This document shows, in pieces, positions 946-51,327 of a stretch of DNA of 64,000 nt. Within the stretch, counting starts at the first letter, position 1, and each line of letters starts with the position of its first letter. The notes under the pieces are model-generated. The model was not told the origin of the DNA. It ran no database searches and saw only the letters and a list, made by a program, of their open reading frames with translations. The position numbers and the translations under genes are program-made. Origin of the DNA: Omnitrophica bacterium RIFCSPLOWO2_12_FULL_50_11 (GTDB lineage: Bacteria; Omnitrophota; Omnitrophia; Omnitrophales; Danuiimicrobiaceae); assembly GCA_001804315.1 (NCBI GenBank), contig MHFT01000050.1, positions 4,600 through 68,599 of the forward strand, given 5' to 3'.

Positions 946-2134
946 CGTTATTGTCCCTGCGGCGGGGTCAAGTCGTCGGTTTCGGACTGGGCAGGTCCAG
1001 GACGGCGGATCCAAGATCTACGCGACTCTAGCCCGTGTGCCATTAATCGCACACGTTTTAGGTGTGTTCGACACCGTTCCTTCGGTGCGTGAGCTGCTCG
1101 TTGCACTGAACCGTGGGGACAAAAAGCGTTTTGAGCATGAAATTCTGTCTTTGAAACGGTTCCGGAAACCCCTCATCATCGTAGAGGGCGGAGCGACGCG
1201 GGCCGAGTCTGTTTTCAAGTGTCTCACGCGCGTCTCAGGGGCGAGCACACACGTATGTGTGCACGACGCCGTTCGTCCGCTCGTTGAGAAAGCGTGGGTC
1301 ACTGAGTTAATACGGTGTCTTGATGGTTACGACGGCATCGTGCTGGGCCGCCGCGTGGTACCGACCATCAAAGTGATTCGTCCGAACAAGGGAGAAATCG
1401 CGCGTACGCTTGACCGGACTCACTTGTTTGAAGCGCAAACGCCGCAGCTGTTTCCAAAGAAAGTTTTACTCAGGGCCTATCAGCTCTTGGGGCGACGAGC
1501 ATTTCATGCGACAGACGACGCTTCGTTGGTTGAGGCGGCTGGAGGACGTCTCAAGACCTTGACACATTCGAATTCCAATTTGAAAGTGACAACGTACCAA
1601 GATTTGGTCATGATTCGGAGTATTCTCGAAGAGACAGGTTCCCCCCGGCCGGCTTTCCGATTCGGGCTTGGGTTTGACCGGCATCGACTGGTTCTCAACC
1701 GCCCTTTTTACCTGGGTGGCGTACAAATTAATTCTACGGTCGGGCCTTTGGGGCATTCGGATGGGGACCCGCTGCTTCATGCGGTGACGGATGGAATCCT
1801 GGGCGCGATCGGTGCCGGCGACATTGGTGACTTTTTTCCCGATACGAGTCCGAGGTGGAAGAATGTGAGAAGCGATCGCTTCCTGAAGAAGGCGGTTGAA
1901 CTGGCTTCGAGACGAAAGTTTCAACCGTTTCAGGTGGATGCTACCATTTTTTTAGATCGTCCCAAATTGGGACCTGCAAAGAAAAAGATTCAGACACGAC
2001 TTTCCAAATTGCTTTCCATCCCGCTCGATCGTGTGGGTGTGAAAGCAAAAACGGCGGAAGGATCAGGTCCTGAAAGATTTGACACCGCCGTCTGGTGCCA
2101 TGCCTTAGTCGTTCTCAGTCCCGTCGATTCATGA
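911..2134 (+). CDS. ispDF: Bifunctional 2-C-methyl-D-erythritol 4-phosphate cytidylyltransferase / 2-C-methyl-D-erythritol 2,4-cyclodiphosphate synthase (IspDF). An alternative start ATG lies at 926
   Basis: N-terminal IspD motif [14 protein letters not shown]; C-terminal IspF motifs [12 protein letters not shown] and [19 protein letters not shown]. Stop TGA at 2132-2134 lies inside the left arm (ATGATCCCCC) of a repeat. Confidence 0.85.
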
Positions 2135-2276
2135 TCCCCCGCCACTTTCTAGTTTTTTTGATTGACGGCATGGTTAATGTCATTTGTTTCATTTCGGTAC
2201 GCTGGCTCACTTCCAAGAAAAGAAGTGGGGGTGATCCCCCACCACCTGGTTTCTTGCGTACGAGTGGTGGGGGATG
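2131..2276. repeat. Composite family-A element between ispDF and gltX. Outer imperfect arms ATGATCCCCCGCCACTT / AAGTGGGGGTGATC; inner perfect hairpin GATCCCCCACCAC - 18 nt - GTGGTGGGGGAT
   Basis: Left arm 2131-2147 contains the ispDF stop; inner hairpin 2233-2275 ends 1 nt into the gltX ATG (2274). Confidence 0.85.
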
Positions 2277-3746
2277 AATACGGTTCGCGTTCGCTTTGCG
2301 CCATCGCCAACAGGACTTCTTCACATTGGCAACGTGAGGACAGCCCTCTTTAATTATTTGTTTGCCCGTCACGAGCAGGGAACGTTCATTTTGCGAATCG
2401 AAGATACCGATACGGAGCGCTCCGACCCGAAGTACAGCGACGCAATCATCCGAGACCTCCAGTTGCTGGAAATCCGATCAGACGAAGGCCCTTATTACCA
2501 GTCGCAGCGGCTTGAACTCTACCAAGAAGCGTTCGAGCGGCTCGAAAAACAGGAGCGGGTTTATTTCTGTTATTGCACGCGGGAGGAACTCGAAGCCAGG
2601 CGCCGGGAAGCACGTACCATGAAGCGGCCGCCGCGCTACGACAATCGTTGCCGGATACTTTCCGACCAAGAGCGCCGGCAACGGACGGCACAAGGCATTC
2701 GACCGACGGTTCGGTTTAAAGTCGAGGTAAAGGAACCGATTTTGATTCAGGACGTGATTCGTGGCGAGGTTTCCTTTGATCCAGGAGAAATGGGAGATTT
2801 CGTGATCATGCGTCCGGATCCTCAGGGAAAGGACCGGCTCCTTCCCACTTTTCATCTCTCTGTGTGTGTCGATGACGGCTTGATGGGAATTACGCATGTC
2901 ATTCGCGGGGAAGACCACCTGTCCAATTCACCGCGGCATGTTCTTTTATTTCAAGCACTTGGTTTTCGCGCGCCCGTCTTTGCGCACCTTTCCTTAATCC
3001 ATGGGCCAGGCGGCGAACCTTTGTCCAAGCGTTACGGCGCTTTGTCTGTGAGCGATTTTGTTCATGAGCAGGGTTATCTTCCTGAGGCGATTCGAAACTA
3101 TCTTGCGCTTCTCGGCTGGTCTCCTAAAGACAATCGAGAAGTCTTTGGCAGCCGGGAGCTGGAGGAGGTCTTCGACCTGAGAAATGCGACCCGCCACCCA
3201 GCCATTTTTGCGGAGCAGAAGCTCATGTGGATCAATAGCGAGCACCTGAAGCGTTTACCGGAAGAGGATTATCTCACGCGCGCATTTGACTTTCTCCAGC
3301 GGAAGGGGGTATCCGTTGAGGACAAAGATGCAGCGTTAGAAGTACTTCTGCGGCTTCAGAAGGACATTCACCGGTTTGACGAGCTTCCCCAGCTTTTTTC
3401 GTTTCTGTGTTCTGAGCAGATCTATGAAAAAAAACTTGAGGAGATCTTTGGTTCGAGAGGCGAAGTGCACGACGTTTTGGTAAGCGGTAGGAATGTCCTC
3501 GCGTCAGCGCACTCTGTGTTGAAGCGTTTGAACTCATCCGGAGAAACCTTATTTGAGGAATTGTTTCGTGAATTGAAAAAAGAAGTTTCCGAAAAGGGCA
3601 AGAAGCTCTATTTTCCCATCCGCGCGGCGCTCACCGGTGAGACCTGCGGGATGGAACTCAAGCAGGTTTTCGTTTTGTTAGACACGACGAGGATCGTGAA
3701 AAGATTAGACATGATTCTTCGCTTAATGAAGGGGTCAGTCCCCTAA
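2274..3746 (+). CDS. gltX: Glutamyl-tRNA synthetase
   Basis: RFAPSPTGLLHIGNVRTALFNYLFAR (HIGH motif), PLSKRYG (KMSKS-like). Conserved N-terminus fixes the start at 2274, directly abutting the repeat arm GTGGTGGGGGAT. Confidence 0.9.
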   Translation: MNTVRVRFAPSPTGLLHIGNVRTALFNYLFARHEQGTFILRIEDTDTERSDPKYSDAIIRDLQLLEIRSDEGPYYQSQRLELYQEAFERLEKQERVYFCYCTREELEARRREARTMKRPPRYDNRCRILSDQERRQRTAQGIRPTVRFKVEVKEPILIQDVIRGEVSFDPGEMGDFVIMRPDPQGKDRLLPTFHLSVCVDDGLMGITHVIRGEDHLSNSPRHVLLFQALGFRAPVFAHLSLIHGPGGEPLSKRYGALSVSDFVHEQGYLPEAIRNYLALLGWSPKDNREVFGSRELEEVFDLRNATRHPAIFAEQKLMWINSEHLKRLPEEDYLTRAFDFLQRKGVSVEDKDAALEVLLRLQKDIHRFDELPQLFSFLCSEQIYEKKLEEIFGSRGEVHDVLVSGRNVLASAHSVLKRLNSSGETLFEELFRELKKEVSEKGKKLYFPIRAALTGETCGMELKQVFVLLDTTRIVKRLDMILRLMKGSVP

Positions 3747-3900
3747 AAAGGGGACAGGTTGTCCTCTCCCCCTCTCCGCCGGAGGACGGACCCACTTCCG
3801 GCAGGCGGGCAGAGGAGATGACGTTGAGCATCCCTGAAAAGGGGAGATTATAGAACTCAAGTTATGATATGACTTACCTTTACGATGTTTTGGATGTGTG

Positions 3901-3934
3901 CCGAAATAACACAATTTTCGGTACGTACCGAAAA
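3901..3934 (+). promoter_or_regulatory. Two mutually exclusive hairpins in the cysS leader (CCGAAAT...ATTTTCGG versus TTTTCGGTA-CG-TACCGAAAA). Candidate attenuator-like switch
   Basis: Overlapping alternative pairings read from sequence, about 60 nt upstream of the cysS ATG. No T-box motif seen. Confidence 0.25.
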
Positions 3935-3995
3935 TTGGCTGCATGAAAGGGACAGTCTTCTTTTTACTTTTTAGGGAAAAGATACCCTTCATTGT

Positions 3996-6117: not shown

Positions 6118-7111
6118 CCAGTACCTCTTGCATCGATTAACGGGGCAGATCGAACGGAGACAATTGAGTTCGACTTATCTGTTCACGGGCCCTGAGTCCG
6201 AAAAGAACAAGCAGCTGGCAATCGCGTTCGCACAAGCACTGAATTGTCCGCGAACTGAGCGTCCCGAGGCGCTGCCGTGCGGCTGCACTGTCTGTCGAAG
6301 GATTGAAGCAGGTGTCCATCCCGATGTGATGTGGTACGGGACCGATGAGGAGTCGAACGCAATCAAAATTTCCCAGGTGCGGGAATTTCGAAGTTTGCTT
6401 GCGTTAAAGCCCTTTGAAGGAAAAGTGAAGGTGTTCATTTTTAACGGTGCCGAACGCCTATCGAGTGAGGCCCAAAACGCGCTCTTAAAGAGTCTAGAAG
6501 AACCGCCGAGAGGGAACGCGATCGTTCTTTTGGTGCCGCAAGCAAACGTCCTTTTTGACACAGTCGTTTCCCGCGCCCTTGAAATTAAAGTACCGCCTTT
6601 TAAGACGGAAGAGATTCGAAACATCCTCGTCGAAGAAGGCGCGGCGGAAAAAGAAAGCGAGTTTTTAGCTCGGATGGCTCAGGGAAAGCTCGCCCGTGCC
6701 CGAGAAGCGCTTCAGGAAGGATGGTTTCACACTAAGAATCAGTGGCTCGATTCGCTCGTCAAAAACCCAATCGCCTTTCTGGACCAATTTGGCGAGTCCT
6801 CCCGCGGTCACATTTCGGTCGTCCTCGCGTTTTTGCTTGAGTGGCTGCGGGATGTTCTCGTTTTTGAGGTTTCGGGCGAGAGTGAATTTCTGGTCCATGC
6901 GGACCGGATCCGGCTCATCGAGTCGTACGCTGAGCGTTATCCGTTTGATTCCGTCTTGGAGCTGTTCGAACGAATCGAGGAGATTCGAAAGGCACTTCGA
7001 GATTACGGAAATCAAAAACTTGCGCTCACGCAGACTCAAATCTTGTGGGGTAAAGTGGTGGGGAATGATCCCCCACCATTTATTCTCAAGAAACCAGATG
7101 GTGGGGGATGA
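6095..7111 (+). CDS. holB: DNA polymerase III delta-prime subunit
   Basis: AAA+ clamp-loader fold. LFTGPESEKNKQLAIAFAQALNC with Cys cluster CPRTERPEALPCGCTVCRR. Placed between tmk and metG as in Firmicutes. The last ~15 codons are encoded by a repeat hairpin. Confidence 0.75.
   Translation: MSSAGLVDQYLLHRLTGQIERRQLSSTYLFTGPESEKNKQLAIAFAQALNCPRTERPEALPCGCTVCRRIEAGVHPDVMWYGTDEESNAIKISQVREFRSLLALKPFEGKVKVFIFNGAERLSSEAQNALLKSLEEPPRGNAIVLLVPQANVLFDTVVSRALEIKVPPFKTEEIRNILVEEGAAEKESEFLARMAQGKLARAREALQEGWFHTKNQWLDSLVKNPIAFLDQFGESSRGHISVVLAFLLEWLRDVLVFEVSGESEFLVHADRIRLIESYAERYPFDSVLELFERIEEIRKALRDYGNQKLALTQTQILWGKVVGNDPPPFILKKPDGGG
7055..7110. repeat. Family-A element at the holB/metG junction: GTGGTGGGGAAT + GATCCCCCACCAT - 18-nt loop - ATGGTGGGGGAT
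   Basis: 12-bp stem 7068-7079/7098-7109, loop TTATTCTCAAGAAACCAG. The loop is the rc-relative of the 2246-2263 loop (both share CTGGTTTCTTG). Confidence 0.85.
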
Positions 7112-10511: not shown

Positions 10512-11114
10512 ATGACTTGGATCGTTGGGATTTTTGTTTTTCTGATGAGCATGACGGTGCACGAAGCGTCACACGGGGCAGTCGCTTTTATTCGTGGCGA
10601 CCGAACCGCAAAAGATATGGGACGTTTGACGCTCAATCCGCTGCGGCACATCGATCTCTTCTGGACGGTTTTGTTTCCCGCGCTGCTCTTTGTATCTACG
10701 GCGGGACAGTTTGTGATTGGGATGGCGAAGCCAGTACCCGTCAACTTTGCCAACTTGTATCACCCGAAGCGCGATATGATTTGGGTCGCTTTGGCAGGTC
10801 CTGCGGCGAACATCATTTTTGCCGAATTCCTGCTCTGGGCGCTGCACCTGACCCATCTTCGGGTTTTCCTGCTCGGCGTATACTTTAATCTAGGTCTGGC
10901 GGTGTTTAATTTGCTGCCGATTCCACCCTTAGATGGTTCGCGTATCGCAGCGGGTGTTCTGCCGCGTCCGTGGGATCGCGAGTACCTCAAAATAGAACCA
11001 TACGGTTTTTTAATTGTACTTGTGCTTTATTTTACGGGTGCTTTATATGCGTGGGTGATTCCAGGGATTAACTTATTGGCGTCTTTTTTGGGGATCCCAA
11101 AGTTATATTTATGA
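10512..11114 (+). CDS. Small site-2-protease-family (peptidase M50) zinc metalloprotease
   Basis: HEASH (HExxH) in a TM helix, LPIPPLDGSRI (LDG motif). About 200 aa, all membrane. Stop TGA lies within an ATGATCCCC repeat-like terminus. Confidence 0.7.
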   Translation: MTWIVGIFVFLMSMTVHEASHGAVAFIRGDRTAKDMGRLTLNPLRHIDLFWTVLFPALLFVSTAGQFVIGMAKPVPVNFANLYHPKRDMIWVALAGPAANIIFAEFLLWALHLTHLRVFLLGVYFNLGLAVFNLLPIPPLDGSRIAAGVLPRPWDREYLKIEPYGFLIVLVLYFTGALYAWVIPGINLLASFLGIPKLYL

Positions 11115-11119
11115 TCCCC

Positions 11120-11240
11120 TTTTTGGGTCATCCCGAAATTCGCAAAATCCGAAAAACCCGAAAAAAAGAGAAAGAAAAAAGGAAGCGAAAAAAGAAAGAG
11201 AAAAACGGCTGCTATTTTCTCACCTTAAAAACCTAAGAAA
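11120..11240. repeat. Homopurine (A/G-rich, GAAA-like) low-complexity tract of about 110 nt
   Basis: ccgaaaaacccgaaaaaaagagaaagaaaaaaggaagcgaaaaaagaaagagaaaaacgg; the + strand is almost entirely purines. Confidence 0.8.
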
Positions 11241-11245
11241 TTGGT

Positions 11246-11518
11246 CTAGACAATGGGGTCCACTTCCGATGAACATAAAATATTTGTAAAAAAATAACCT
11301 GTTGGATGCTCCAAAGTTGCATATCGAAAAATACCGCCGGTTACGGCGATGATCAAATCAACGGTTATCCAGTTGCTTCCTTCTTTGAAATATGCAAAAT
11401 CATCCGGTGGGGACAGGGCCGGTCCGGCGATGGGGATGATATTGGCAATGCCCTCAGGCGTATCCGTGTCTCTGATCTCTATAAAGTGACCAGTTCCGTC
11501 TTGAAGTACTCGGTACAT
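11246..11518 (-). CDS. Hypothetical 90-aa protein. Its ATG lies 2 nt downstream of the higA stop, making it a possible third gene of the TA operon
   Basis: ATG at 11518 follows the higA TAA (11521-11523) with a 2-nt gap. No recognisable motifs. A + strand alternative ORF also exists. Confidence 0.3.
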   Translation of the reverse strand: MYRVLQDGTGHFIEIRDTDTPEGIANIIPIAGPALSPPDDFAYFKEGSNWITVDLIIAVTGGIFRYATLEHPTGYFFTNILCSSEVDPIV

Positions 11519-11520
11519 TT

Positions 11521-11862
11521 TTAAGCTGCCTGACGATCTCTTTTTGCAATTGCCTGTCCAATTTTATGCAAGGCCTCTCGGCTAATAGGGATGGCCTGCA
11601 AACGTACTGTATAACCGAGATGGAGCAATATCTTTTCGAGTGTCGCAACACTTGAAAATTCTCCGCTCTCCATTTTGGAAATATGCTGCTGGGATACACC
11701 AATCTTCTCGGCCAATTGTGTCTGATTCAGTTTGTGCTTGATCCGGTAATCAACGATCTTTTTCACAATCTCGAGTTTCTGCTCCTCAAGCTCGTGAAGT
11801 TCCTTAAAATAGGGATCCTTGAGCTTTTCCTGCAGATGCTTGTCAACGCTTTCCGTCTTCAT
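11521..11862 (-). CDS. higA: HigA-like antitoxin, XRE-family HTH protein. Start trimmed to MKTESV at 11862
   Basis: HTH_3 signature KLNQTQLAEKIGVSQQHISKMESGE. SD GGGGTGA precedes the ATG at 11862. Lies immediately downstream of the toxin gene. Confidence 0.7.
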   Translation of the reverse strand: MKTESVDKHLQEKLKDPYFKELHELEEQKLEIVKKIVDYRIKHKLNQTQLAEKIGVSQQHISKMESGEFSSVATLEKILLHLGYTVRLQAIPISREALHKIGQAIAKRDRQAA

Positions 11863-11887
11863 TTTGATCACCCCATTTCTTTCCATC

Positions 11888-12247
11888 TTATTTTTGCTTT
11901 CCTGTTCTTTCCAAAAAGAGCTTCCGTCTCTGAATCGCAACTTCCCTTTCGTTCTTTGGCGTCTTATCGGATTTCTTAATAAAGCCATTTGTGAAAATTG
12001 CCCGGTCCTGATGAAAGAAAAAGTATAAAACCCTTATAGCTCCCTCCCGTCCCTTGAACCTGAGTTCTAATATCTCATCGCCTATATACTTTGCATGGGG
12101 CTGCGGAAGCTTGTGTCCAAACTCTTCCAGCAGACCTACAACGAAGAAGAACTTCCGCTGTGTCTTCGGAACCAGTGAATCGATGAACTCTCGAACCGGC
12201 ACCCAGCTTGAATCCGTGACGAAGTATTCGCATGATACCTTCTTCAC
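11888..12247 (-). CDS. higB: HigB-like toxin (RelE/ParE superfamily, Gp49/DUF891 type). GTG start
   Basis: ELRFKGREGAIRVLYFFF...IFTNGFIKKSDKTPKNEREVAIQRRK matches the HigB-2/Gp49 pattern ELRx..G..RV.YF....L.GF.K..K.P..E...A. Toxin-upstream/antitoxin-downstream order is typical of higBA. Confidence 0.65.
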   Translation of the reverse strand: MKKVSCEYFVTDSSWVPVREFIDSLVPKTQRKFFFVVGLLEEFGHKLPQPHAKYIGDEILELRFKGREGAIRVLYFFFHQDRAIFTNGFIKKSDKTPKNEREVAIQRRKLFLERTGKQK

Positions 12248-12272
12248 TTCACCCCCTGATGTTATATTACAA

Positions 12273-12305
12273 CCATTTAGTAGTATGCCACCATTTAGTT
12301 GTATG
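12273..12305. promoter_or_regulatory. Two 15-nt direct repeats (CCATTTAGTAGTATG / CCATTTAGTTGTATG) overlapping a TTGACA -35 upstream of higB. Candidate operator
   Basis: Tandem repeats separated by CCA, abutting the rc TTGACA at 12304-12309 on the minus strand. Confidence 0.45.
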
Positions 12306-12317
12306 TCAAGTTGGCCA

Positions 12318-12366
12318 TTAAAGTAAAAACCGCCAGATGCCTATAGGAAGGACACCCGGCGGTTCT
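12318..12366 (-). terminator. Rho-independent terminator for the GH130-GT4 operon
   Basis: Minus strand reads AACCGCCGGGTGTCC...CTGGCGGTT (7-bp GC stem) followed by TTTTACTTT, about 140 nt after the GT gene stop. Confidence 0.55.
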
Positions 12367-12505
12367 GTTTCTCTTTCGATTTTTTGATGGGAGAACAATT
12401 GGCTCCCCGTACTGGACGACTTTCGCAACTGGGCACTATCTACCACAGAGACGGGAATCTTCAAAGTCCATTTTGAGGCAGCTATTTGTTAGGAGTAGGA
12501 AATCA

Positions 12506-14761
12506 TCAAGAGTGCTGAATAGCAAGTCTTGCTAAAAGGTAAGAGGTGGTGGACTCCGCTCCCTGATTGAGATTAATTTGACCGTCTCCCACGCCGTCAT
12601 AACACCCGCCCGTGGCCCTGTCATAAACCATCTGATTCAGGCTGTTGTCGCCCAAAAACCAGTTAAAGGCTTCGAGCATGAGTTTGTGATAACTCTCTTT
12701 TCCTGTGACAGAATAGGCGATCTGAAGCGCGCAAGCCATGGCGGAAGCGTCCTCGGGCTGCTGGTCAAAATAGCGGCGCTCACCGGTTTTTTGATGCCAG
12801 CCATCCTGGCCAATCGGCGCGTAGATTCCGTTTAAAAAAGTCTGGGCAATCAAAAAATCCAAAGTCTTGATGCCAGTCTCGAGAAAATCACTATTGCCGG
12901 TTTGCTGATACCCCAAAAGAAGCGCCTCGGGAACAACGGCATTCGAATAGGTTAAATAGGTTTCGAACCATTCCCATTCTTTCGACGAAACTCCCCGGTA
13001 AAGCGAGACCAGGCGGTCACAGTAACGAACCACTCGCTGTTTGAAGTCTTCCCAGTTAATTTCCTTCGGATTTTTTAAAAGTAGGCAAAGTCCTTTCACA
13101 TAAAAGGCGGTGGCGCGTGGGGATTCTATTATCAGAGGATGGTCCATTCTTCTTTTTAATAAGGAAAATGCCCTCTCTCTAAGGGTGTCCGGCAGGGCTG
13201 CTGTAGTTGCCGCGGCTGCGAGCGCCCAGAGTGTCCGGCCATTCGCGTCTTCAAGATTTTCTTTTTGGTTAAACTCATGGTCGATGGTTCTATCCGGCTT
13301 CACGTAATTATAAAAAAGGCCGTTTTCGTCCGAGACAAATTCGATGAAACGCAGGTAAATTTCAATGCGTTTGAGCACTTCATTTTTTCTTTTATCAGGA
13401 GAAAGGGCCTTAATGGCTTTGCCGATCTGCTCCATGTAGGAACACGACACAATAAGCGCACGTGCGTTATCGTCTACGGTATAACCCGAGGAAATGTCAG
13501 GCAAAGAAAGCTGGGCGAATTGAATGATCCCGAAATCGTCGGTCAGACGAAACAAATGGTTTAAGTTACTCCGTGGAATTTTTTTGTACTTACTGACTTT
13601 GGCGATATCGCCGGAGTATTTCGAAAACAATTTTAAATACTCAAGGGCAACATTGTCCCAGGTCATATTGCGGGTCCTAAAATAAGCGTTCTTTCCAAAT
13701 TGTTCCCTGAGCTGGAGGTCTTTCAAAAGCTTGAGAAGAGCCTCGGCATAGGAGGCCGAGTCCCTGAAATTGACTAAGAACCCGGTTTGTGGAGTGATGA
13801 TCTCCTTGGCTTGGGCAAAAGGAGTAGAGATGACGGGTCGGCCGGACCCCAGAGCGTAGGAGAGCGTTCCCGAAACAGTTTGATTCGGATCCAGAGAGGT
13901 TGAAATGTAAATATCCGCGGCCCTCAAAAACTGGAGGAGTTTGTCGAGCGATACGTACTCATTATAGAAACTTACGTTAGAAGAGAGCTTGAGTTCGCGC
14001 ACCTTTTGAATGAGGGACTTCCGGTAGCTTTCGCCTTCTTCTTTTAAGACATTGGGATGAGTCGCACCCAAAACGATATACCTGAGGTCCGGGTAAGCCT
14101 TCACCACCGGAGGCAGGGCCTCCAGAACATATTCAATTCCTTTTCCGCGGCTGAGAAGCCCGAAGGTCAAAAGGATTGTGTTTTTTGAAAAACTTAAAAC
14201 AGACTTGGACTTTGCGCTGGGGGTATAAGGCGCGGGGTGAATACCGTGAAGGATGACCGAAATTTTTTTCCCGTCAATTCCGTATTCTCCGGCCAGGATT
14301 TCTTTTGAACGGTGCGTCATTGCGACTAGACCGCTTGTTTTTTCGGCGATCGAACGCACGATGTTATGAAGTTCGGGATTGGGGGAAGGGAGAACGCTAT
14401 GAAAGGTCACAACCGAAGGCTTTTTGAGTACGTCTAAAAAGGAAAGGATACAAGAACCGTATTTTCCTCCAAAAAGGCCGAATTCATGTTGGATATTGAC
14501 GAGCTTGATGTCATCCGTTTTGTTTATTTTTTCAGCCGTACTGATGAAGCTGGACTCCGAATGCGGGTCGAGCTCGAAAATTACTTCCCGCGGGTAATGG
14601 TAGCGCGACACCGCATCGTTGTTGATCGCGGCGATCCGCGAATCCAGGGCAGTCTCAAACAAGTGATCGATGGCGACCGCGAGGTCTTGAGTAAAAGTCG
14701 CGATCCCGCATTCCCGGGGCGGAAAACTGGACAAATAGACAATCTTTAGGCTTTCTTTCAT
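12506..14761 (-). CDS. Family 4 glycosyltransferase (GT-B) fused to a C-terminal ~330-aa (alpha/alpha)6 six-hairpin-glycosidase-like domain
   Basis: N-terminal IVYLSSFPPRECGIATFTQDL plus a typical GT4 C-terminal Rossmann half (EGFGLP-like region). The C-terminal region has WALAAAAT..., DGW...YFD.QPED, WFLGDN...GGCYDG patterns reminiscent of GH63/GH15-type toroids. Confidence 0.65.
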   Translation of the reverse strand: MKESLKIVYLSSFPPRECGIATFTQDLAVAIDHLFETALDSRIAAINNDAVSRYHYPREVIFELDPHSESSFISTAEKINKTDDIKLVNIQHEFGLFGGKYGSCILSFLDVLKKPSVVTFHSVLPSPNPELHNIVRSIAEKTSGLVAMTHRSKEILAGEYGIDGKKISVILHGIHPAPYTPSAKSKSVLSFSKNTILLTFGLLSRGKGIEYVLEALPPVVKAYPDLRYIVLGATHPNVLKEEGESYRKSLIQKVRELKLSSNVSFYNEYVSLDKLLQFLRAADIYISTSLDPNQTVSGTLSYALGSGRPVISTPFAQAKEIITPQTGFLVNFRDSASYAEALLKLLKDLQLREQFGKNAYFRTRNMTWDNVALEYLKLFSKYSGDIAKVSKYKKIPRSNLNHLFRLTDDFGIIQFAQLSLPDISSGYTVDDNARALIVSCSYMEQIGKAIKALSPDKRKNEVLKRIEIYLRFIEFVSDENGLFYNYVKPDRTIDHEFNQKENLEDANGRTLWALAAAATTAALPDTLRERAFSLLKRRMDHPLIIESPRATAFYVKGLCLLLKNPKEINWEDFKQRVVRYCDRLVSLYRGVSSKEWEWFETYLTYSNAVVPEALLLGYQQTGNSDFLETGIKTLDFLIAQTFLNGIYAPIGQDGWHQKTGERRYFDQQPEDASAMACALQIAYSVTGKESYHKLMLEAFNWFLGDNSLNQMVYDRATGGCYDGVGDGQINLNQGAESTTSYLLARLAIQHS

Positions 14762-14783
14762 TTAATAGACGGACAACCCAACC

Positions 14784-15740: not shown

Positions 15741-16000
15741 CTGATTTTCAAATGCGTTTTCCGAACTTTCGAGGATGATGCCCTCGCTTTTGATTTAGAT
15801 CATGGGCCTCCAAATGCCGCCTGCCTGTCGGCAGGCAGGGGTTCAATAAAAAAGCGCTACCGGATTATACTCCGGCAACACCTTGGGATTATGGGTATTG
15901 TAATAATCTCGTCGGGATGGACGCCAAACGAACCACGCATGATCAATGGGCATCATTACTTATAACAATGGAAAAGTGGCGTGGTGCCCACGGAGCGAAG

Positions 16001-17290: not shown

Positions 17291-17294
17291 GCTG
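17181..17294. promoter_or_regulatory. Five TTGGCGA(A/T) direct repeats in two clusters at 11-nt spacing, flanking a perfect 10-bp palindrome ACGAATTCGT, upstream of or overlapping the 5' end of fic
   Basis: CGCCAA at 17184, 17195, 17263, 17274 and 17285 (+ strand), spaced 11 nt within each cluster; palindrome at 17243-17252. Confidence 0.5.
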
Positions 17295-17436
17295 TTGTCA
17301 AATTTATTGCCAGGTTTTTAGCGCCCTTACAAAGAAAAAAGGTGAAGCCGCTTTGATTCGCCTTCACCTTTACTTTTGGCTCGAAAAGTTCGAGCCCTAT
17401 AGGGCTCCCCGGGCAGGGCTCGAACCAAGGTCACTC

Positions 17437-17474
17437 GAAAAATAAAAGGGGTTGCACTTCCGCACAACCCCTTT
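17437..17474 (-). terminator. Rho-independent terminator of the DEAD-box helicase gene
   Basis: Minus strand reads GGGGTTGTGCGGAAGTGCAACCCC hairpin followed by TTTTATTTTT, about 100 nt after the helicase stop. Confidence 0.7.
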
Positions 17475-17572
17475 GCGGTTTCTCCCCGTATGGGCGGGCT
17501 TTTTTCAGTCCCGCGTAGTTTGCGGGAACGACTTTCGCAACCGGCTGATATTCAAAGGCCGTCCTAAGCGAA

Positions 17573-19027: not shown

Positions 19028-19040
19028 CTGTACTACGCCT

Positions 19041-36660: not shown

Positions 36661-36706
36661 CGTCATCCTGAGCCCGCCACGATTTGCGGCGGGCTCAGGA
36701 TGACGG
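36661..36706. repeat. Perfect 18-bp-stem hairpin CGTCATCCTGAGCCCGCC-ACGATTTGC-GGCGGGCTCAGGATGACGG, related to family B by the shared GTCAT...ATGACGG termini
   Basis: Read from sequence. The ATG at 36700 inside the right arm is the ORF-track start of dnaE. Confidence 0.8.
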
Positions 36707-39700: not shown

Positions 39701-40170
39701 CGAGAAAGGAAATTGTGACGAAGCGGGGAGATCGGATGGCCTTTATCGGCCTCGAAGATTTAGACGGTCGTTGCGAGGTGGTCGTATTCCCTGAGTTGTT
39801 CAAATCTTCATCTTCGTTGCTCCAAAAAGATGCGTGCGTATTTGTCCGTGGCAAGGTGAATGGGCGGGAGGACACGCCCAAGGTGATTGCCGAAGAAGTG
39901 ATTCCCCTTGATGAAGTTAAGAGAAAGCAGGTCAGAATGGTTTCCATAGACCTGCTGACCGCTGGGTTGGATTTGCAAACCCTGGAGCAACTGAAGGAGA
40001 TTTTGTCCCAGCATCCTGGAAAAACCCCCGTCCATATTAATTTTAAGGATTCGTCGGGTCGCAAAACCGTCCTCCATCCTGGGGATCGGTTTAGGGTTGA
40101 GACGAGTGAGCCATTGTTCGAAGAATTGGAGCGTCTGGTTGGTTCGGAAGCGGTTAAGATTAGCTGCTAA
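36700..40170 (+). CDS. dnaE: DNA polymerase III alpha subunit. True start probably MSHVDFAHLHCH at 36733
   Basis: PHP domain FAHLHCHTQFSLLDA, palm/fingers motifs, OB fold at C-terminus. 1156 aa. Confidence 0.9.
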   Translation: MTDGFGVGIAMSHVDFAHLHCHTQFSLLDATSKIPQLLKRAVDLHFPALAVTDHGNLFGAISFYEEAMRQGIKPIIGMEAYVAPKSRFDRTAHGIKEASFHLTLLCRNEVGYKNLLKLTTASYLEGFYYRPRMDKELLAKHREGLIALSGCLKGEVPYHTWHEQLDKAEEAIRGYIDIFGTENFYLELMDQGIEAQQKLFQHYPNFARAFGLKLVATNDCHYIQRTDAVSHDALICIGTGSLISDEDRMRYHGDQFYLKSAEEMKSLFQGVPGAVRNTIEIVDRCNLEMDFTKTHLPIFTPPNGKKQEGYLEELCCELLRKKMGEQIPQGYVDRLRHELSVIRKMGFSGYFLVVWDFVRHARENYVPVGPGRGSVAGSLVAYVLGITSLDPIRHGLIFERFLNPERISMPDIDIDFCYERRDEVINYVGKKYGEESVAHIITFGTMAARAVIRDVGRVMGVSYQEVDQLAKLIPAELDMTIDRALHMEPRLRDLVNSDERVRKLIETSKALEGLSRHASTHAAGIVISEGPLSDHSPLFKANDQITTQYDMGAVERIGLLKMDFLGLKTLTVIDKAAKLVQSRCDVEIEIERIPLDDPGTYQMLGRGEAIGVFQLESSGMRDLLRKMKPSRFGDLVALLALFRPGPIGSGMIDDFIRRMHNPALIQYDHPVLVPILKETYGIILYQEQVMQIVSTLAGFSMAKADSLRRAIGKKIPEIMEREKKSFIDGATKNRIDPKIADRIWNLIEYFSGYGFNKSHSTAYAFISYQTAYLKANYPNEYMAALLTSEQDNTDKIVRYIEECKRLRIPVLPPSVNESCSEFACVGDTIRFGLSAVKNVGLGSVESILESRTTQGRFKSLQDFTERVDLRLCNRKVLESLIKCGAFDDFGLKRAQLMAMLDSVLNAGARVQHDRQRGQLSLLTQMGTKESFFDIVTSIPNVEEWAENELLGYEREMLGFYVSAHPLAKYEKALRTFASVTSAGLRDLRDQTQLSIGGVVSSRKEIVTKRGDRMAFIGLEDLDGRCEVVVFPELFKSSSSLLQKDACVFVRGKVNGREDTPKVIAEEVIPLDEVKRKQVRMVSIDLLTAGLDLQTLEQLKEILSQHPGKTPVHINFKDSSGRKTVLHPGDRFRVETSEPLFEELERLVGSEAVKISC

Positions 40171-40226
40171 TCCCCACCACTTTGAGGAATGTTACGGGGG
40201 ACGCACCTTAAAGTGGTGGGGGGATC
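40169..40226. repeat. Family-A hairpin element copy (ATCCCCACCACTTTGAGG - 18-nt loop - CCTTAAAGTGGTGGGGGGAT). The dnaE stop TAA overlaps its first base
   Basis: 19-bp stem, 18-nt loop AATGTTACGGGGGACGCA. Confidence 0.85.
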
Positions 40227-41805: not shown

Positions 41806-41860
41806 CAACGTCATGCGAGGCCAACAACCCAAGCAATGGCCGAAGTAATTGCAACTGCAC

Positions 41861-41954
41861 CGTCATTGCGAGGAAGCGAACCAGGCGAAGACGAAGCAAT
41901 CTCAGAACCTAGATTGCTTCGGCATTGCTTTGGGACTCAGCCTCGCAATGACGG
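41861..41954. repeat. Family-B nested inverted-repeat element: GTCATTGCGAGG ... GAAGCAATCT ... AGATTGCTTC ... CCTCGCAATGACGG
   Basis: Outer 12-13-bp arms at 41861-73/41941-54, inner 10-bp arms at 41893-902/41911-20. Creates a spurious 42-aa N-terminal extension of mtaB in the ORF track. Confidence 0.85.
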
Positions 41955-46342: not shown

Positions 46343-46536
46343 TTTAGTCCGGTTTTCTCATCAATTTGGCGGATTGATGAGAAAACCGCTTTGGACGCAC
46401 GAAGTTGCGTCCAAAGTTTTGCGCCCCTGTCAAAACGGGGCGCAAAAGACAACCCCTGTGGTACAAATGGACAAGCCCATTTGCACCACAGCCTCTTCGA
46501 GGGCATTTCTCATTGGCGATGAGAAATGCGGGTTAG
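46343..46536 (+). repeat. Multi-hairpin element copy 2 (194 bp, five consecutive perfect hairpins), between dnaG and rpoD
   Basis: Same hairpin series as 24018-24271 minus the 59-nt insert. Differences from copy 1 fall in loops (TGTCAAAAC vs TCTCAAAAT). Confidence 0.85.
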
Positions 46537-46542: not shown

Positions 46543-48330
46543 ATGAAGAGGGAAAGAAGGTTTAAGAAAATTCGTCAGAAGAAGCGAAACCGGAATGCCA
46601 AAGGCCGAGGTCTGGATTCTCGGCGCGATTCAAAGCATTCGCCGAAATCGAGGCCCTGCTTGGAGAAAGAGACTGTGTCTATCACCAGAAAAGTCCATGG
46701 CCGTACAAGGAAGAAGAAAACACTAGCTTCTGAGGCAGCCAGTTTGAAACGAGGCGGAACCGCTTCTTATCAGGCGGACTTAGATCAGCTTGTCTCGTTA
46801 GGCAAGCGGCAAGGCTATGTCACTTATGAGCAAATCAACAGTGTATTTCCACGCGAAACCACTTCTTCCGAAAGGATCGAGGAAATACTAAACGCACTTT
46901 CTGAGCGGAATATCGAGGTGACGACGAGCCCGATTCAAAAGGGGGCCGGCGTTGAAGAAGAAAGTCAAGTGAAGAAGGAGAGGAAAGAAATAGCTCTACC
47001 TCGTAAAGAATTTCCGATTCAAGAAGAAGAATATGAACGCGCCCGCATGGATGATCCTGTTCGGACCTATTTGCGTCAAATGGGTCAGATTCCGTTGCTG
47101 ACGCGGGAGCAGGAAATCGCGCTCGCGAAGCGCATTGAAGATGAAGAGGCGAAATTGGCGACCACGGTGTTTGAAACGAAAGCGGCACGATATGAGGTGT
47201 TGTGCTTGGCAAATCAAATTGTGAACAATGAGGTCAGCTTAGAATCCATCATTGATGAAGACGAGGCATCCAAACTCCAGTTCACGAAGCGAAAGTTACA
47301 AAGTCTAACGCGCAAGCTTCGTGCGTCGCGCAAAGATGCTGACTTAGTCCCGCTCCTGAAGCAGTTCAATCTGAATGTCGGGATCGTCGAACAAATTATT
47401 GCCAATTTGCGTTCCAAACTCAATGAGCTTAAGCGGAACGAAAAGGCGATCGAGCAACTTAGGAGAACAGAGGTTCGGGGACAGATTGGTGCCCTGATGG
47501 AACGGAACAAAGAAATTCTCAGTCAGATCGGCGAGACGGAAAGTGCGGTTTATGAGCATATGAAGCGGATTCAAAAACGTGAGCGTGAGCTTTCTCGGGC
47601 GAAGAAAGATTTAGTCGCTGCGAATTTGAGGCTCGTGGTGAGCATTGCCAAAAAATACACGAACCGAGGGCTCACGTTCTTGGATTTGATTCAGGAAGGC
47701 AATATCGGTTTGATGAAAGCGGTAGATAAATTCGAATACAAGCGGGGTTACAAATTTTCTACTTATGCGACCTGGTGGATCCGCCAGGCAATTACGCGTT
47801 CGATTGCGGACCAGGCGCGAACGATCCGCATTCCGGTGCACATGATCGAGACGATCAATAAATTTTTCCGTGCGTCGCGACATCTGGTTCAGGAATCGGG
47901 CCGCGAGCCGACTCCGGAAGAAGTGGCGCGTGTGATGAAGATGCCGGTTGAAAAGGTGAAGGGGATCCTGAAAATTGCGCAGGAGCCCATCAGCCTTCAG
48001 ACGCCTGTGGGCGAAGAAGGAGACACGAGCTTTGGCGATTTTATCGAGGACAAAGGCGCCGTTTCTCCAGCGAATGCGACTGCTTATTCCATGCTCAAAG
48101 AGCAGATGGATGAGGTTTTGGACACGATTACAGAGCGCGAGGAAAAAGTTTTGAGGCTTCGGTTCGGGATCGGGGATGGTTACTCACGGACGCTCGAGGA
48201 GGTAGGGAAAATCTTTAATGTTACGCGCGAGCGCGTCCGTCAAATTGAGGCGAAGGCGCTTCGAAAACTAAGGCATCCAACGCGTTCGCGGAAGCTGAAA
48301 AACTTTTTAGACTTGAAGTTCAAGGACTAG
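46543..48330 (+). CDS. rpoD: RNA polymerase primary sigma factor (sigma-70/RpoD) with an unusual basic N-terminal extension. Start uncertain
   Basis: Regions 1.2-4: [92 protein letters not shown]. Confidence 0.9.
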
Positions 48331-48350
48331 TCCCCCACCACTCTTGAAAT
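48329..48350. repeat. Family-A half-element (GTCCCCCACCACTCTTGA) abutting the rpoD stop TAG
   Basis: Left arm only; the weak partner GTGGTTGGG about 45 nt downstream. Confidence 0.5.
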
Positions 48351-48523
48351 GATGTGCCCTATATTGTTCAAACCACCAAAATTGAACGTGGTTGGGATTA
48401 GCCGGTGAAATGACGAAATTCTCCGCCAGAAAACGCGGTGGATTCGCCCTGTCGTTTGGCGGAGAATGACAAACGGCCCTGTTGCTTGAGCAACCACTGA
48501 TGAGATGAGGAGAACGTTCGGAT

Positions 48524-50794: not shown

Positions 50795-50837
50795 GTGCTG
50801 GAGATGTTTGGTAATATAATCGAAATTGTTCTTTCTG

Positions 50838-51150
50838 AATTTGGTGATGCGCGGTAGGGCTAGGAGATGATCGCTCCCGCCGGATTTGGGCGGGGGAGGA
50901 AAGTCCGGGCTCCATAAGGCAGAGTGCTCCGTAATTCGGAGGCTTACGTCCCGAAAGGGGTGTAAGACGGAAAGTGCCACAGAAAAAAAACAGCTCCTCA
51001 TTTTTTTGGGGGGTCAAGGTGAAACGGCGGTTTAAGAGACCACCGGTCCAACGGCAACTGCGGACGCATGGCAAACCCCACTTGGAGAAAGACTGAATAG
51101 AAGACGATCGGCTTGCCCTTAAAAGACGTCGAGCCAGGGAATAGCCTGTT
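50838..51150 (+). ncRNA. rnpB: RNase P RNA (bacterial type A, compact ~300 nt). Ends are approximate
   Basis: Universal P4 region GGAGGAAAGTCCGGGCTCCATAAGGCAGAGTGC; GGAAAGTGCCACAGAAA; GGTGAAACGGCGGTTTAAGAGACCACC; 3' P4 strand GATCGGCTT. TATAAT -10 at 50815. Confidence 0.8.
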
Positions 51151-51154
51151 CCCT

Positions 51155-51210
51155 GTCCCCCACCACTTTAAGGTGATAATCTTTGGACACACCTTAAAGT
51201 GGTGGGGGAC
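51155..51210. repeat. Family-A hairpin element (GTCCCCCACCACTTTAAGG - 18 nt - CCTTAAAGTGGTGGGGGAC), immediately 3' of rnpB
   Basis: Perfect 19-bp stem, 18-nt loop. Confidence 0.9.
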
Positions 51211-51271
51211 TAAAGTCTTGGGTTAGTCGCATGAGATTTCGTGAGAGCGGAATCCTAGACAGATGATCATC

Positions 51272-51327
51272 GTCCCCCACTACTTTAAGGTTCGTCCCCT
51301 GTGACATTCCTTAAAGTAGTGGGGGAT
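51272..51327. repeat. Family-A hairpin element (GTCCCCCACTACTTTAAGG - 18 nt - CCTTAAAGTAGTGGGGGAT). Carries a compensatory C-to-T / G-to-A pair relative to the copy at 51155
   Basis: Perfect 19-bp stem; CACTAC/GTAGTG here versus CACCAC/GTGGTG in the neighbouring copy. Confidence 0.9.

Follow-up and report, generated by a model that had tools for sequence, protein, structure and literature searches.

Hairpin elements at gene ends in Omnitrophota are probably small transposons that insert into stop codons

Why do hairpins lie exactly on gene junctions in a bacterial genome, where they appear to supply stop and start codons? The window analysed here, the whole stretch of 64,000 nucleotides (64 kb) from Omnitrophica bacterium RIFCSPLOWO2_12_FULL_50_11, contains eight such elements of 40, 54, 67 and 97 nt. 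In our reading, they are probably small non-coding transposons (MITEs) of Omnitrophota, which insert into stop codons and duplicate them. MITEs are the short non-coding remnants of a cut-and-paste transposon.

Termini, centres and subfamilies

The terminal inverted repeat TCCCCCACCAC(TTTAAGG) is common to all eight elements. With up to two mismatches, the motif GATCCCCCACCAC occurs 13 times in the window against 1.1 expected, and no shuffle reached 13. The window hairpins are genuine and far exceed what chance allows. The features are as follows (window positions, with the strand where one is assigned).

2132-2134, + strand: TGA, ispDF stop codon, first of three TGA copies (read as a target-site duplication)
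2135-2231: element 1, 97 nt, older and decayed (TCCCCCGCCACTTTC ... GAAGTGGGGG), TGA on either side
2232-2234, + strand: second TGA copy, between elements 1 and 2
2235-2274: element 2, 40-nt subfamily, 11-nt terminal repeats and 18-nt centre CTGGTTTCTTGCGTACGA, hairpin of -23.4 kcal/mol
2275-2277, + strand: third TGA copy, with T2275 and G2276 as the last two bases of the gltX start ATG 2274-2276
7052-7065, + strand: solo right-terminus lookalike (AAGTGGTGGGGAAT), by sequence resemblance; adjoins the target
7066-7068, + strand: TGA, left target copy at the holB-metG junction
7069-7108: 40-nt element within the 3' end of holB; A7108 is the first base of the metG start codon
7109-7111, + strand: TGA, right target copy and holB stop; overlaps the metG ATG 7108-7110
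28088-28133: TCA, 40-nt element (28091-28130), TCA, inserted in the final lipB codons
40168-40170, + strand: TAA, dnaE stop; an element adjoins
40171-40224: 54-nt element, long-arm subfamily, centre AATGTTACGGGGGACGCA
48328-48330, + strand: TAG, rpoD stop at the ancestral position; RpoD ends ...D* in the relatives L093 and L095 too
48331-48397: 67-nt copy of the 70-nt subfamily, right terminus decayed (GTGGTTGGGA), followed by T and TAG (48399-48401)
50855-51358, + strand: rnpB (RNase P RNA, class A), host of two copies; Rfam RF00010, 228.5 bits (gathering score 100)
51156-51209: 54-nt element within the P15-P17 region of RNase P RNA; not in three relatives
51273-51326: 54-nt element at the P19 position of RNase P RNA; in relatives, P19 is a short, unrelated hairpin

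The general form is 5'-TCCCCCACCAC(TTTAAGG)...(CCTTAAAGT)GGTGGGGGA-3', with terminal inverted repeats of 11-18 bp. Both ends correspond to TCCCCCACCAC / GTGGTGGGGGA in 40 of 40 copies, extended to 18 nt in the long-arm subfamily. The length classes are 40, 54, 67-70, ~100 and 110 nt, none with an ORF of its own; the family ranges from 40 to ~190 nt, and its longest member has a nested insert. The same termini enclose centres of 18 nt (two unrelated sequences), ~48, ~79 and ~88 nt. Other members have centres of ~42 to 160 nt, and in the L124 copy another repeat family is nested inside the centre. Within each subfamily the centre is conserved. It measures 18 nt in 24 of 25 long-arm copies; among those from 21 JGI loci (same or sister genome), 21 of 22 have this length and the other has 16 nt. 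Copies occur in either orientation.

A preliminary description of this DNA had listed six hairpins with an 18-nt centre. Its coordinates contain the cores re-derived here: 2233-2276 contains 2235-2274, 7067-7110 contains 7069-7108, 28083-28133 contains 28091-28130, 40169-40226 contains 40171-40224, 51155-51210 contains 51156-51209, and 51272-51327 contains 51273-51326. The similarity of the loops, in either orientation, is borne out for the hairpin centres. However, the fixed loop length of 18 nt is true of two subfamilies and not of the family, which has the other centres of ~42 to 160 nt.

Occupied and empty sites

The ispDF-gltX junction has the layout TGA, 97 nt, TGA, 40 nt, TGA. The stretch 2131-2276, formerly taken as one copy, is really two elements (2135-2231 and 2235-2274) with a TGA between them. 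As had been stated, the ispDF stop TGA 2132 is at the left terminus, where it adjoins the T of TCCCCC. The final base of element 2, A2274, is the A of the gltX ATG. The use of the right arm's last A as a start was also correct. An independent gene call gives the same start in near-identical assemblies of the same organism. When both elements and two TGA copies are deleted in silico, TTCATGAATACGG is obtained, with an ATGA overlap as in the relative L089. The junction minus both elements is TCATGAATACG, which matches this 4-nt overlap.

The ATGA at holB-metG is the ancestral junction. Here holB has 14 codons more than in the relative L087, and the extra length is accounted for by the element 7069-7108. 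The gene does read through a copy, as proposed, and ends at TGA 7109. Likewise, the metG ATG 7108 falls on the last A of the right arm, and an independent gene call gives the same 503-aa MetG (near-identical assemblies). The N-termini of gltX and metG align with a relative. Judging by its sequence, the lookalike at 7052-7065 may be a remnant of an older copy.

The element in lipB contains the gene's new stop, TGA 28102. In L087, where the site is empty, TCA is present only once. Without 28091-28130 and one TCA, the lipB end becomes ...GGGGATCAATCATGGT, colinear with ...GAAAATCAACCATGGT in L087. No elements are present at the holB-metG and lipB-coaX junctions in the closest relatives.

The stops of dnaE (TAA 40168) and rpoD (TAG 48328) had been placed at left terminus, and both adjoin the T of TCCCCC. 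The dnaE copy, 40171-40224, has no recognisable duplication (left TAA, right TCG). After rpoD, the spacer is ~190 nt here versus 12-13 nt in L093 and L095, with the C-terminal residue of the protein unchanged. As this residue is the same in relatives, the stop codons belong to the genes themselves. The supposed half copy 48329-48350 is in fact a full 67-nt copy of a different subfamily, with a decayed right arm. Its centre shows 69-77% identity to three JGI-locus copies, against a background of ~45%.

A stub at 11110-11135 was rejected as a family member. Only TGATCCCC matches, and this is indistinguishable from chance. The TGA of the M50 gene, said to lie inside its terminus, is this gene's ancestral stop and part of an ATGA junction.

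The placement of copies exactly on stop and start codons was right. The two copies reported in tandem after rnpB are in fact inside rnpB, within the Rfam class A match 50855-51358, which covers model positions 1-367 and spans both. Neither copy is present in the rnpB of three relatives, and neither has a recognisable target duplication. Other RNA genes are also affected: in L128, one copy is in helix H98 of 23S rRNA and another lies 11 nt past 5S rRNA.

No such motif was found in L087, L089 and L090 (58 kb of syntenic DNA). Filled versus empty orthologous sites were observed at lipB, ispDF-gltX, holB-metG, rpoD and the two rnpB sites.

Direct repeats and the origin of the copies

The flanks were surveyed in 40 complete copies. 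The metagenome sample demanded one perfect arm, so the survey is biased to young copies. Direct repeats flank 24 of the 40: 17 copies have identical 3-nt repeats, 3 have identical 4-nt repeats, and 4 match with a 1-nt offset. When the right flanks were permuted (10,000 trials), exact 3-nt repeats numbered 6.0 on average and 14 at most. The 3-nt repeats have the form T-N-A (TCA, TGA, TAA, TTA), and the 4-nt repeats the form Y-TAR (CTAG, CTAA, GTAG). TCA, TGA or TTA is found on both sides of 17 copies, 7 others fit the 4-nt Y-TAR, and the L098 copy has TAA on both sides. These repeats co-vary among copies (TCA/TCA, TGA/TGA, TTA/TTA, TAA/TAA). Inverted (palindromic) flanks are seen in just 6 of the 40 copies. 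No duplication could be recognised in 16 of the 40, including 40171-40224 and both rnpB copies. We read the direct repeats as target-site duplications; because they flank the copies, the copies arrived by insertion.

The left flank is TCA in 13 of the 40 copies, TAG in 8, TGA in 6 and TAA in 3, with others in the remainder. Of the 22 metagenome-locus copies, 12 have, on one side or the other, an open stretch of 93-498 codons whose stop is exactly at -3 relative to the terminal T. The dnaE stop in the window is likewise at -3.

Short (below ~300 bp) non-coding units, common termini, target duplication and filled and empty sites are among the marks of a MITE, and these were found here. A transposase recognising the common ends would make a staggered cut at T-N-A or Y-TAR. 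In gene-dense genomes, the stop codon would be nearly the sole harmless target of this type, and surviving insertions would be in stop codons because such trinucleotides can hardly be hit harmlessly anywhere else. The left copy of the duplicated stop would still terminate the upstream gene, which would stay intact as a result of the duplication. Since the last base of the element is A, the right copy reads A followed by TGA. This would restore the ATG of a downstream gene that formerly overlapped the stop (ATGA), as for gltX, metG and, in another MAG, lipA. Insertion into stop codons, with their duplication, would thus explain why copies touch gene ends and rebuild overlapping starts. The RNA hairpin would be a by-product, tolerated between cistrons and in peripheral helices of RNase P RNA and 23S rRNA.

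Against the MITE reading, a single enzyme would not usually make duplications of both 3 and 4 nt, and 16 of the 40 copies have no recognisable one. End-like sequence is also present beside several targets, with lookalikes of the element's own right end at 7052-7065 and at L027 4920-4938. The MITE model leaves these sequences unexplained; re-use of hot spots, or homing to end-like sequence, is our guess.

A search for an autonomous element or a transposase with these termini gave nothing in the 64-kb window, in 215 kb of same- or sister-genome loci, or beside copies in other Omnitrophota MAGs, which also speaks against the MITE reading. The genes enclosed by two copies are proB, glmU and a toxin-antitoxin pair.

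Selection could instead have kept the copies as useful intercistronic RNA hairpins, which would couple or occlude translation, serve as an RNase III or exonuclease barrier, or stabilise the mRNA. We consider this unlikely. The hairpins do fold strongly (-17 to -40 kcal/mol), the gltX and metG start codons take their A from the closing base, and the window's three 40-nt copies can pair with an upstream arm instead. With the stop codon right at the stem, a ribosome that terminates there has to open the stem. REPs near stop codons affect expression in E. coli. The hairpins described here may affect translation. On the other hand, copies are not kept at orthologous junctions even in the closest relative (83% MetG identity), their orientation relative to the flanking gene is unbiased (9 vs 4), and the direct repeats show that they came by insertion. 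Copies also occur in rRNA, in RNase P RNA and between convergent genes, and most genes here are without any Shine-Dalgarno sequence. No Rfam family matches the elements.

The arms tell the same about stem maintenance by selection, which had been proposed from a compensatory pair between the rnpB copies. One compensated pair does exist, in 51273-51326 (CACTAC/GTAGTG), but arm changes in the 25 long-arm copies are 14 uncompensated versus 1 compensated. The single pair does not support stem selection, as it is part of RNase P RNA, in which the pairing of helices is under selection in any case. In the two L128 copies (23S rRNA and 5S trailer), the mismatches are G.U on the transcribed strand, which favours a selected hairpin. 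A dedicated translational device for aminoacyl-tRNA synthetase genes is not supported: the closest relatives are without elements at holB-metG and lipB-coaX, and in one of them ispDF and gltX simply overlap by ATGA.

It is even less probable that these are REP-like elements that a RAYT or a tyrosine (HUH) transposase of the IS200-IS605 type moved by way of a single-stranded hairpin. Their form as short, perfect palindromes would agree with it, as would their location at gene ends, in either orientation and often in tandem or near other hairpin families (three-hairpin clusters in other Omnitrophota). So would the GTAG on both sides of L101 12020-12097; however, this is 1 of 40 copies, and GTAG is not conserved. 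IS200/IS605-type insertion makes no duplication and is always 3' of one fixed tetranucleotide. The REP/RAYT or IS200-like copying suggested earlier is unsupported, because such a mechanism does not make the co-varying 3- or 4-nt direct repeats that flank 24 of the 40 copies. In addition, the subfamilies have the same termini around different centres, as MITEs typically do. No recurrent protein family turned up at up to 2.5 kb from the copies, and a Pfam search of 17 ORFs gave no Y1 transposase.

Could the hairpins be ordinary GC-rich intrinsic terminators, or a DNA uptake or protein-binding motif in inverted pairs? The positions at gene ends would suit this, as would an 11-nt arm motif kept across many Omnitrophota MAGs with differing centres, but it is highly improbable: TTTT within 12 nt of either end accompanies only 3 of 25 copies, subfamily centres are conserved at a fixed length, direct repeats flank the copies, and many copies lie in RNA genes or within operons of co-directional essential genes (obg, proB and proA in L136). 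The preliminary view of discrete, conserved multi-copy units stands.

Comparison with known systems

The family appears to be undescribed. We regard it as one more example of a class of mobile DNA that is already known, and not as a novel regulatory device. Correia/CREE (Neisseria) and RUP (Streptococcus pneumoniae) are bacterial MITEs, A+T-rich, of 100-170 bp and with TA at their ends (PMC2229807). The Omnitrophota elements resemble them in being short, non-coding and multi-copy, and in having terminal inverted repeats and target-site duplications. They share the long RNA hairpins, the location at gene ends, the ORF fusions and a presence that varies among related genomes. In contrast, the Omnitrophota elements are C/G-rich (TCCCCCACCAC), of 40-110 nt, and duplicate T-N-A or Y-TAR. 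The stop codon itself is the site of most surviving copies, and no parent insertion sequence was found.

Within the IS5 family, the IS1031 group has a preference for 5'-TNA-3' and generates direct repeats of 3 bp (PMC12016507). The largest class of copies here (TCA, TGA, TAA, TTA) agrees with this group in target consensus and in the length of the duplication. The agreement is in the footprint alone, and the one published terminus compared (GAACCTGTCTAGTATCT, PMC12016507) is unrelated to TCCCCCACCAC. The second class of copies also differs, with its 4-nt Y-TAR repeats. Repeats of this type are typical of other IS5 subgroups.

REP/BIME sequences of Enterobacteria and Pseudomonas are similar as palindromes of a few tens of nt right after stop codons, and in both, clusters with other hairpins are common. 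The foot of a REP is a conserved GTAG, its target is not duplicated, and it is linked to a Y1 transposase gene. The Omnitrophota elements are without this conserved foot and have target duplications, and the 17 ORFs run through Pfam include no Y1 transposase.

Rickettsia palindromic elements (RPE) are tolerated in essential genes, including the RNase P RNA gene (PMC2229807). The elements described here are also palindromic repeats inside essential genes, and extend ORFs in frame (holB, lipB, obg, proB). By description, RPE are set apart by their 100-150 bp, a location mostly within coding regions and no clear duplication, whereas the Omnitrophota elements are mostly at stop codons.

Finally, Supply et al. 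1997 reportedly found that the ends of mycobacterial interspersed repetitive units (MIRUs) overlap the preceding stop and following start codons in operons. MIRUs are tandem direct repeats with small ORFs, unlike these inverted-repeat hairpins with target duplications. Nevertheless, both are intercistronic repeats whose ends overlap the stop before and the start after.

Hairpin elements in the window and beyond

With at most two mismatches allowed, the window has 13 occurrences of the motif GATCCCCCACCAC; shuffling predicts 1.1, and no shuffle exceeded 5. Two of these matches are chance occurrences within coding sequence (23572, and 36445 in the GMP synthase gene). We recovered copies by pattern scans with mismatches. 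Each element is taken to begin at the T of TCCCCC and to end with the A of GGGGGA, the family termini being TCCCCCACCAC. Sequence reading and a scan for paired termini gave eight elements.

Elements of the family in the window
2135-2231: 97 nt
2235-2274: 40 nt, 11-nt arms and 18-nt centre
7069-7108: 40 nt, 11-nt arms and 18-nt centre
28091-28130: 40 nt, 11-nt arms and 18-nt centre
40171-40224: 54 nt, 18-nt arms and 18-nt centre
48331-48397: 67 nt
51156-51209: 54 nt, 18-nt arms and 18-nt centre
51273-51326: 54 nt, 18-nt arms and 18-nt centre

Their predicted RNA hairpins are strong (-17 to -40 kcal/mol), and their arms vary too little to allow a covariation analysis. The hairpins of the preliminary description are real and well above chance; three factual corrections were needed, on the half copy after rpoD, the copies after rnpB and the M50 stub. 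What was read as a half copy after rpoD belongs to a 70-nt subfamily and is complete, though its right arm has decayed. Its centre has 69-77% identity to those of three copies found outside the window, whereas unrelated pairs have about 45%. The tandem copies placed after rnpB both lie within the gene, because the Rfam RNase P class A model aligns end to end over 50855-51358 (228.5 bits). In addition, the single copy read at 2131-2276 is two elements with a TGA between them. The likeness of the centres in either orientation holds among the 40-nt copies and among the 54-nt copies.

A stub reported at the M50 protease gene has only TGATCCCC in common with the family, and we do not count it as a member. 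The TGA of this gene belongs to an ancestral ATGA junction, also present in a relative. Between the M50 protease gene and thiL lie about 13 kb of mostly minus-strand genes (~11115-24340), with an HTH/Gp49 pair, glycosyltransferase, GH130, Fic, DEAD helicase, Maf and BipA. The two flanking genes are adjacent or overlapping (ATGA) in the related loci L087, L089 and L090. This block is an inserted or rearranged island that starts right after the M50 TGA.

The window holds other repeats. One of ~190-260 nt, with several different hairpins, lies at 24012-24272 and 46343-46536. It includes CGGTTTTCTCATCAAT / ATTGATGAGAAAACCG at 24025-24063 and 46350-46388, and both copies are 97-100% identical to copies in the JGI loci L109, L122 (two copies) and L137. 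A hairpin of yet another family, with perfect 18-bp pairing (CGTCATCCTGAGCCCGCC ... GGCGGGCTCAGGATGACG), lies at 36661-36705, and its right arm includes the first ATG of the dnaE ORF (36700). Related arms (CGTCAT...GAGG/CCTC...ATGACG) occur at 18893-19032, 23500-23930, 41814-41954 and ~58880-58940.

Beyond the window, a metagenome scan with one 18-nt arm returned 21 loci (215 kb) of the JGI dataset Ga0156289. They have no unique sequence in common with the window, but another repeat is common to both at 97-100% identity. These loci are presumably further contigs of the window's own genome or a sister genome. They carry at least 22 long-arm copies (54-nt type), 21 of them with an 18-nt centre, and also members with the same termini and longer centres. 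The long-arm centre is AAYGTCCCNNGGGACRAA or its reverse complement, so copies lie in both orientations and the hairpin extends into a second short stem. At L124 4215-4403, ~135 nt of a further hairpin family (CCCGTCATCCTGAGCGGAG ... CTCAGAATGACG) interrupts the centre of a long-arm copy, so that one repeat family is nested in another.

We also scanned one genome per species with the pattern TCCCCCACCA-N20-34-TGGTGGGGGA. Family-like hairpins were found in at least 10 Omnitrophota MAGs and in a few from other candidate phyla. Other matches, in Clostridia and in one Planctomycetota MAG, are unrelated. In Clostridia MAGs (L001, L004, L014, L016, L017, L024, L030 and others), TCCCCCACCA is the tRNA 3' end (acceptor 3' strand plus ACCA), which explains these matches. 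There, a terminator hairpin follows the tRNA and its far arm pairs back onto the tRNA 3' end. Mimicry of a tRNA 3' end by the family was rejected, since the window's only tRNA is unrelated and lacks an encoded CCA. The Planctomycetota MAG Centralia_MAG_388 (L003, L008, L012, L020, L021 and ~20 more contigs) has a different nested palindrome, CCACCCCAACCC-TCCCCCACCAGGGGGGAGGGAG...CTCCCTCCCCCCTGGTGGGGGA-GGGTTGGGGTGG, very abundant and often at contig ends. In a Saccharibacteria MAG (L056 2030-2160, minus strand), a tRNA-Ala-like gene, complete with G3.U70 in its acceptor stem and with D and T arms, carries a TCCCCC...GGGGGA hairpin in place of the anticodon loop. ARAGORN makes no call for it and calls the adjoining intact tRNA-Ala.

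Other Omnitrophota have clusters of three hairpins joined by conserved linkers, in which a TCCCCCACCACTTT hairpin (centres 20-23 nt) takes the middle place. The layout is TTAAATGAGC...GCGAATTTAA / hairpin / TAAGTTCGG...CCTCACTTAT, with variable flanking stems. It occurs at L029, L039, L050 and L051 (MAG DeMMO4_14), at L022, L041, L044 and L061 (CSMAG_2090), and at L032, L006, L064 and L055. The cluster at L050 590-800 has z = -10.8. We rejected a structured non-coding RNA here, because the clusters have no Rfam match and the flanking hairpins differ. We read them as mosaics of different palindromic repeats.

Occupied and empty sites

MetG of the window has 100% identity to MetG of Omnitrophica bacterium RIFCSPLOWO2_12_FULL_50_11. 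The order ispDF-gltX-cysS-tmk-holB-metG-tatD-...-lipB-coaX is kept in L087, L089 and L090 (MetG identity 83%, 68% and 67%), and the element motif is absent throughout these 58 kb. The copies are inserted DNA rather than conserved signals. At ispDF-gltX, the window reads TGA / 97 nt / TGA / 40 nt / TGA. Without the two elements and two of the TGAs, this becomes TTCATGAATACGG, in which the genes overlap by 4 nt (ATGA), and L089 has exactly this arrangement (ispDF end 5274, gltX start 5271). Likewise, the lipB end without 28091-28130 and one TCA becomes ...GGGGATCAATCATGGT, colinear with ...GAAAATCAACCATGGT and its single TCA in L087. The ATGA overlap of the holB stop and metG start is present in both the window and L087, and holB has 338 codons in the window versus 324 in L087. 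In two relatives the RpoD C-terminus is the same (...D, then stop). There, 12-13 nt separate rpoD from the next gene, against ~190 nt in the window, where the spacer opens with the 67-nt element directly after TAG. Finally, rnpB of three relatives aligns well to that of the window without either 54-nt insert, and their P19 consists of short unrelated hairpins.

The same ispDF-gltX TGA carries a different element of 113-115 nt in L087 (5419-5533), with related termini TCCCATCACCTCCG / CGGAGGTGATGGGA and TGA on both sides. It encloses three hairpins (z = -8.6), surrounded by the stem ATCCCATCACCTCCG / CGGAGGTGATGGGAT. Its centre is at best weakly similar to that of the 97-nt element in the window (score 0 versus null -11.6 +/- 4.6). 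The TGA/TGA flanks indicate another element of the same kind. Its right terminus gives a canonical GGAGGTGAT Shine-Dalgarno 7 nt ahead of the gltX ATG. A conserved gltX leader with a long-range Shine-Dalgarno/anti-Shine-Dalgarno stem was considered and rejected, as L089 has a bare ATGA overlap at this junction.

A near-identical strain (L082 1600-1660, compared with window 2105-2140) is without 33 nt (TTAGTC...CATGATCC) at the left end of the 97-nt element. Consequently, the IspDF frame of this strain continues into the element, and the called protein is 5 residues shorter. The terminus may be an indel hot spot; otherwise the difference is an artefact of assembly.

Target duplications and gene ends

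Among 40 complete copies, 17 have identical 3-nt flanks (TCA, TGA or TTA) and three have identical 4-nt flanks (CTAG, GTAG, CTAA), so two duplication lengths coexist. Four more match at a one-base offset, and 16 have no recognisable duplication. When right flanks were permuted among copies, which keeps their skewed composition, the mean was 6.0 matches and the maximum 14 in 10,000 trials. Inverted flanks, expected from mere palindrome extension, occur in only 6 of the 40. The repeats differ between copies and co-vary, as a staggered target cut produces, unlike a fixed cleavage motif. Several targets adjoin sequence like the element's own right end (7052-7065; L027, from another MAG); our guess is repeated use of a hot spot.

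The target forms T-N-A and Y-TAR jointly cover TAA, TGA and TAG; for genes on the opposite strand they cover the complementary TTA, TCA and CTA. The left flank is a stop triplet in 17/40 copies and TCA (an opposite-strand TGA) in 13 more. In 12 of the 22 metagenome copies, an open stretch of 93-498 codons has its stop exactly at -3 from the terminal T on either side, as does dnaE in the window.

These footprints suggest how insertion would proceed. The enzyme would target the short T-N-A/Y-TAR motif and, with minimal intergenic space, the surviving insertions would be those within the stop codon itself. The duplication would keep one stop copy in place, leaving RpoD and IspDF unaltered. As the last base of the element is A, the second target copy would read A/TGA, and a downstream ATG overlapping the old stop would be rebuilt.

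Start codons proposed to be rebuilt at element ends
2274: gltX ATG
7108: metG ATG
L027 4981: lipA, in another MAG

Thus the claim that the elements supply start codons holds in one part: the A of these ATGs comes from the element. The start positions themselves are ancestral. Where the frame does not match, the upstream protein would acquire a short element-encoded tail; such tails are read in holB and lipB, and in obg and proB of L136, ending ...VPHHFK.... A Shine-Dalgarno sequence is missing from most genes of the window, so the G-run of the hairpin need not act as one.

Copies also lie inside RNA genes, one in the P15-P17 region of rnpB and one at the P19 position. In L128, one copy is within 23S rRNA as a 45-nt insertion in a helix loop (model positions ~2817-2826), and a second lies 11 nt past 5S rRNA. 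The position after the sarcin-ricin loop and H97 suggests that this helix is H98. All these sites are peripheral, variable helices. Each L128 copy has a single arm mismatch, which is G.U on the transcribed strand. The sole compensated arm change among 25 long-arm copies is in the P19 copy. Such a pattern agrees with selection acting on the host RNA rather than on the element. In Rickettsia, the RNase P RNA and tmRNA genes are already known to contain palindromic repeats (PMC2229807).

The 3' part of the L128 23S rRNA (10737-11939, minus strand) has, in addition, a 742-nt insertion relative to the model, with a 187-aa ORF bearing a LAGLIDADG-like motif (11185-11748). The insertion is probably a group I intron that encodes a homing endonuclease.

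Nature of the family and related systems

The family behaves like a bacterial MITE, and the discrete mobile unit proposed in the preliminary description is upheld. Its suggested mechanism, a hairpin of the REP/RAYT or IS200 type, fares less well: the target duplications, together with the tests on the alternatives, point to a cut-and-paste MITE with stop-codon-shaped target duplications. The evidence also points away from a selected RNA switch or a dedicated translational device, since copies are absent at the junctions of relatives and arm changes are uncompensated in 14 cases versus one compensated. Moreover, the centre orientation relative to the gene ending at the element (9 versus 4) is not significant, and there is no match to an Rfam family. 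An intrinsic terminator is the weakest alternative, with TTTT within 12 nt of an end in just 3/25 copies. The hairpins may still influence translation or RNA decay.

We doubt, without dismissing it, that the family is adapted to essential operons. Its 5'-T...A-3' ends and T-N-A target would allow entry into the TGA of an ATGA junction with both codons restored, so it could colonise sites closed to other transposons. The hairpin abutting the stop would make downstream translation dependent on unwinding by the ribosome terminating upstream, as an acquired translational coupler, and the same hairpin would be reused as a helix of RNase P RNA or 23S rRNA.

No transposase or long element with the family termini was found in searches that covered genome fragments. 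An all-against-all comparison of ORFs up to 2.5 kb from 20 copies gave no recurring protein family. With Pfam, the 13-kb island of the window showed no mobilising enzyme (glycosyltransferase, Fic, helicase, Maf and BipA genes and a toxin-antitoxin pair), and copy neighbours in other MAGs were housekeeping genes, again with no mobilising enzyme. ORFs between paired copies (proB, glmU, a VapBC-like pair) included none either, and inverted repeats 0.6-3.5 kb apart were merely separate copies, not a long element. Overall, only housekeeping genes, toxin-antitoxin pairs and a LAGLIDADG ORF were recovered. In the closest relative (LptF 89% identical), L091 1303-2543 holds a phage-type integrase and small HTH genes directly upstream of the tRNA(CAT) preceding lptF.

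A simple transposition footprint explains a pattern that resembles regulation, in which hairpins supply essential genes with stop and start codons. With this in mind, annotators of Omnitrophota MAGs can avoid mis-called gene ends and rnpB/rRNA boundaries. Copies likely break short-read assemblies. Two related contigs stop within ~100 nt of lptF, just ahead of the place of rnpB in the window; L091 ends 93 nt past lptF, where rnpB would start. The family is a clean natural example of transposon target preference and purifying selection giving codon-exact placement. In an uncultured phylum, it shows a route by which RNase P RNA and 23S rRNA can take up a mobile hairpin, and it offers a testable case of hairpins imposed on translation starts in an organism mostly without Shine-Dalgarno sequences.

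We found no description of the family in the full-text literature under its terminal sequences or Omnitrophica repeats. Unlike REP/BIME, it is without a conserved GTAG and has target duplications. Correia and RUP elements are distinct from it in their A+T-rich sequence and TA ends. MIRUs are distinct in being direct repeats in tandem, although they too overlap the stop and start codons on either side. The commonest footprint here, a T-N-A target with a 3-bp repeat, is also that of the IS5 family's IS1031 group (PMC12016507). The resemblance is of footprint only, and the family termini are unlike the one IS1031-group terminus compared. This is a new family of a known kind, with codon-exact, self-repairing insertion into ATGA junctions and RNA helices.
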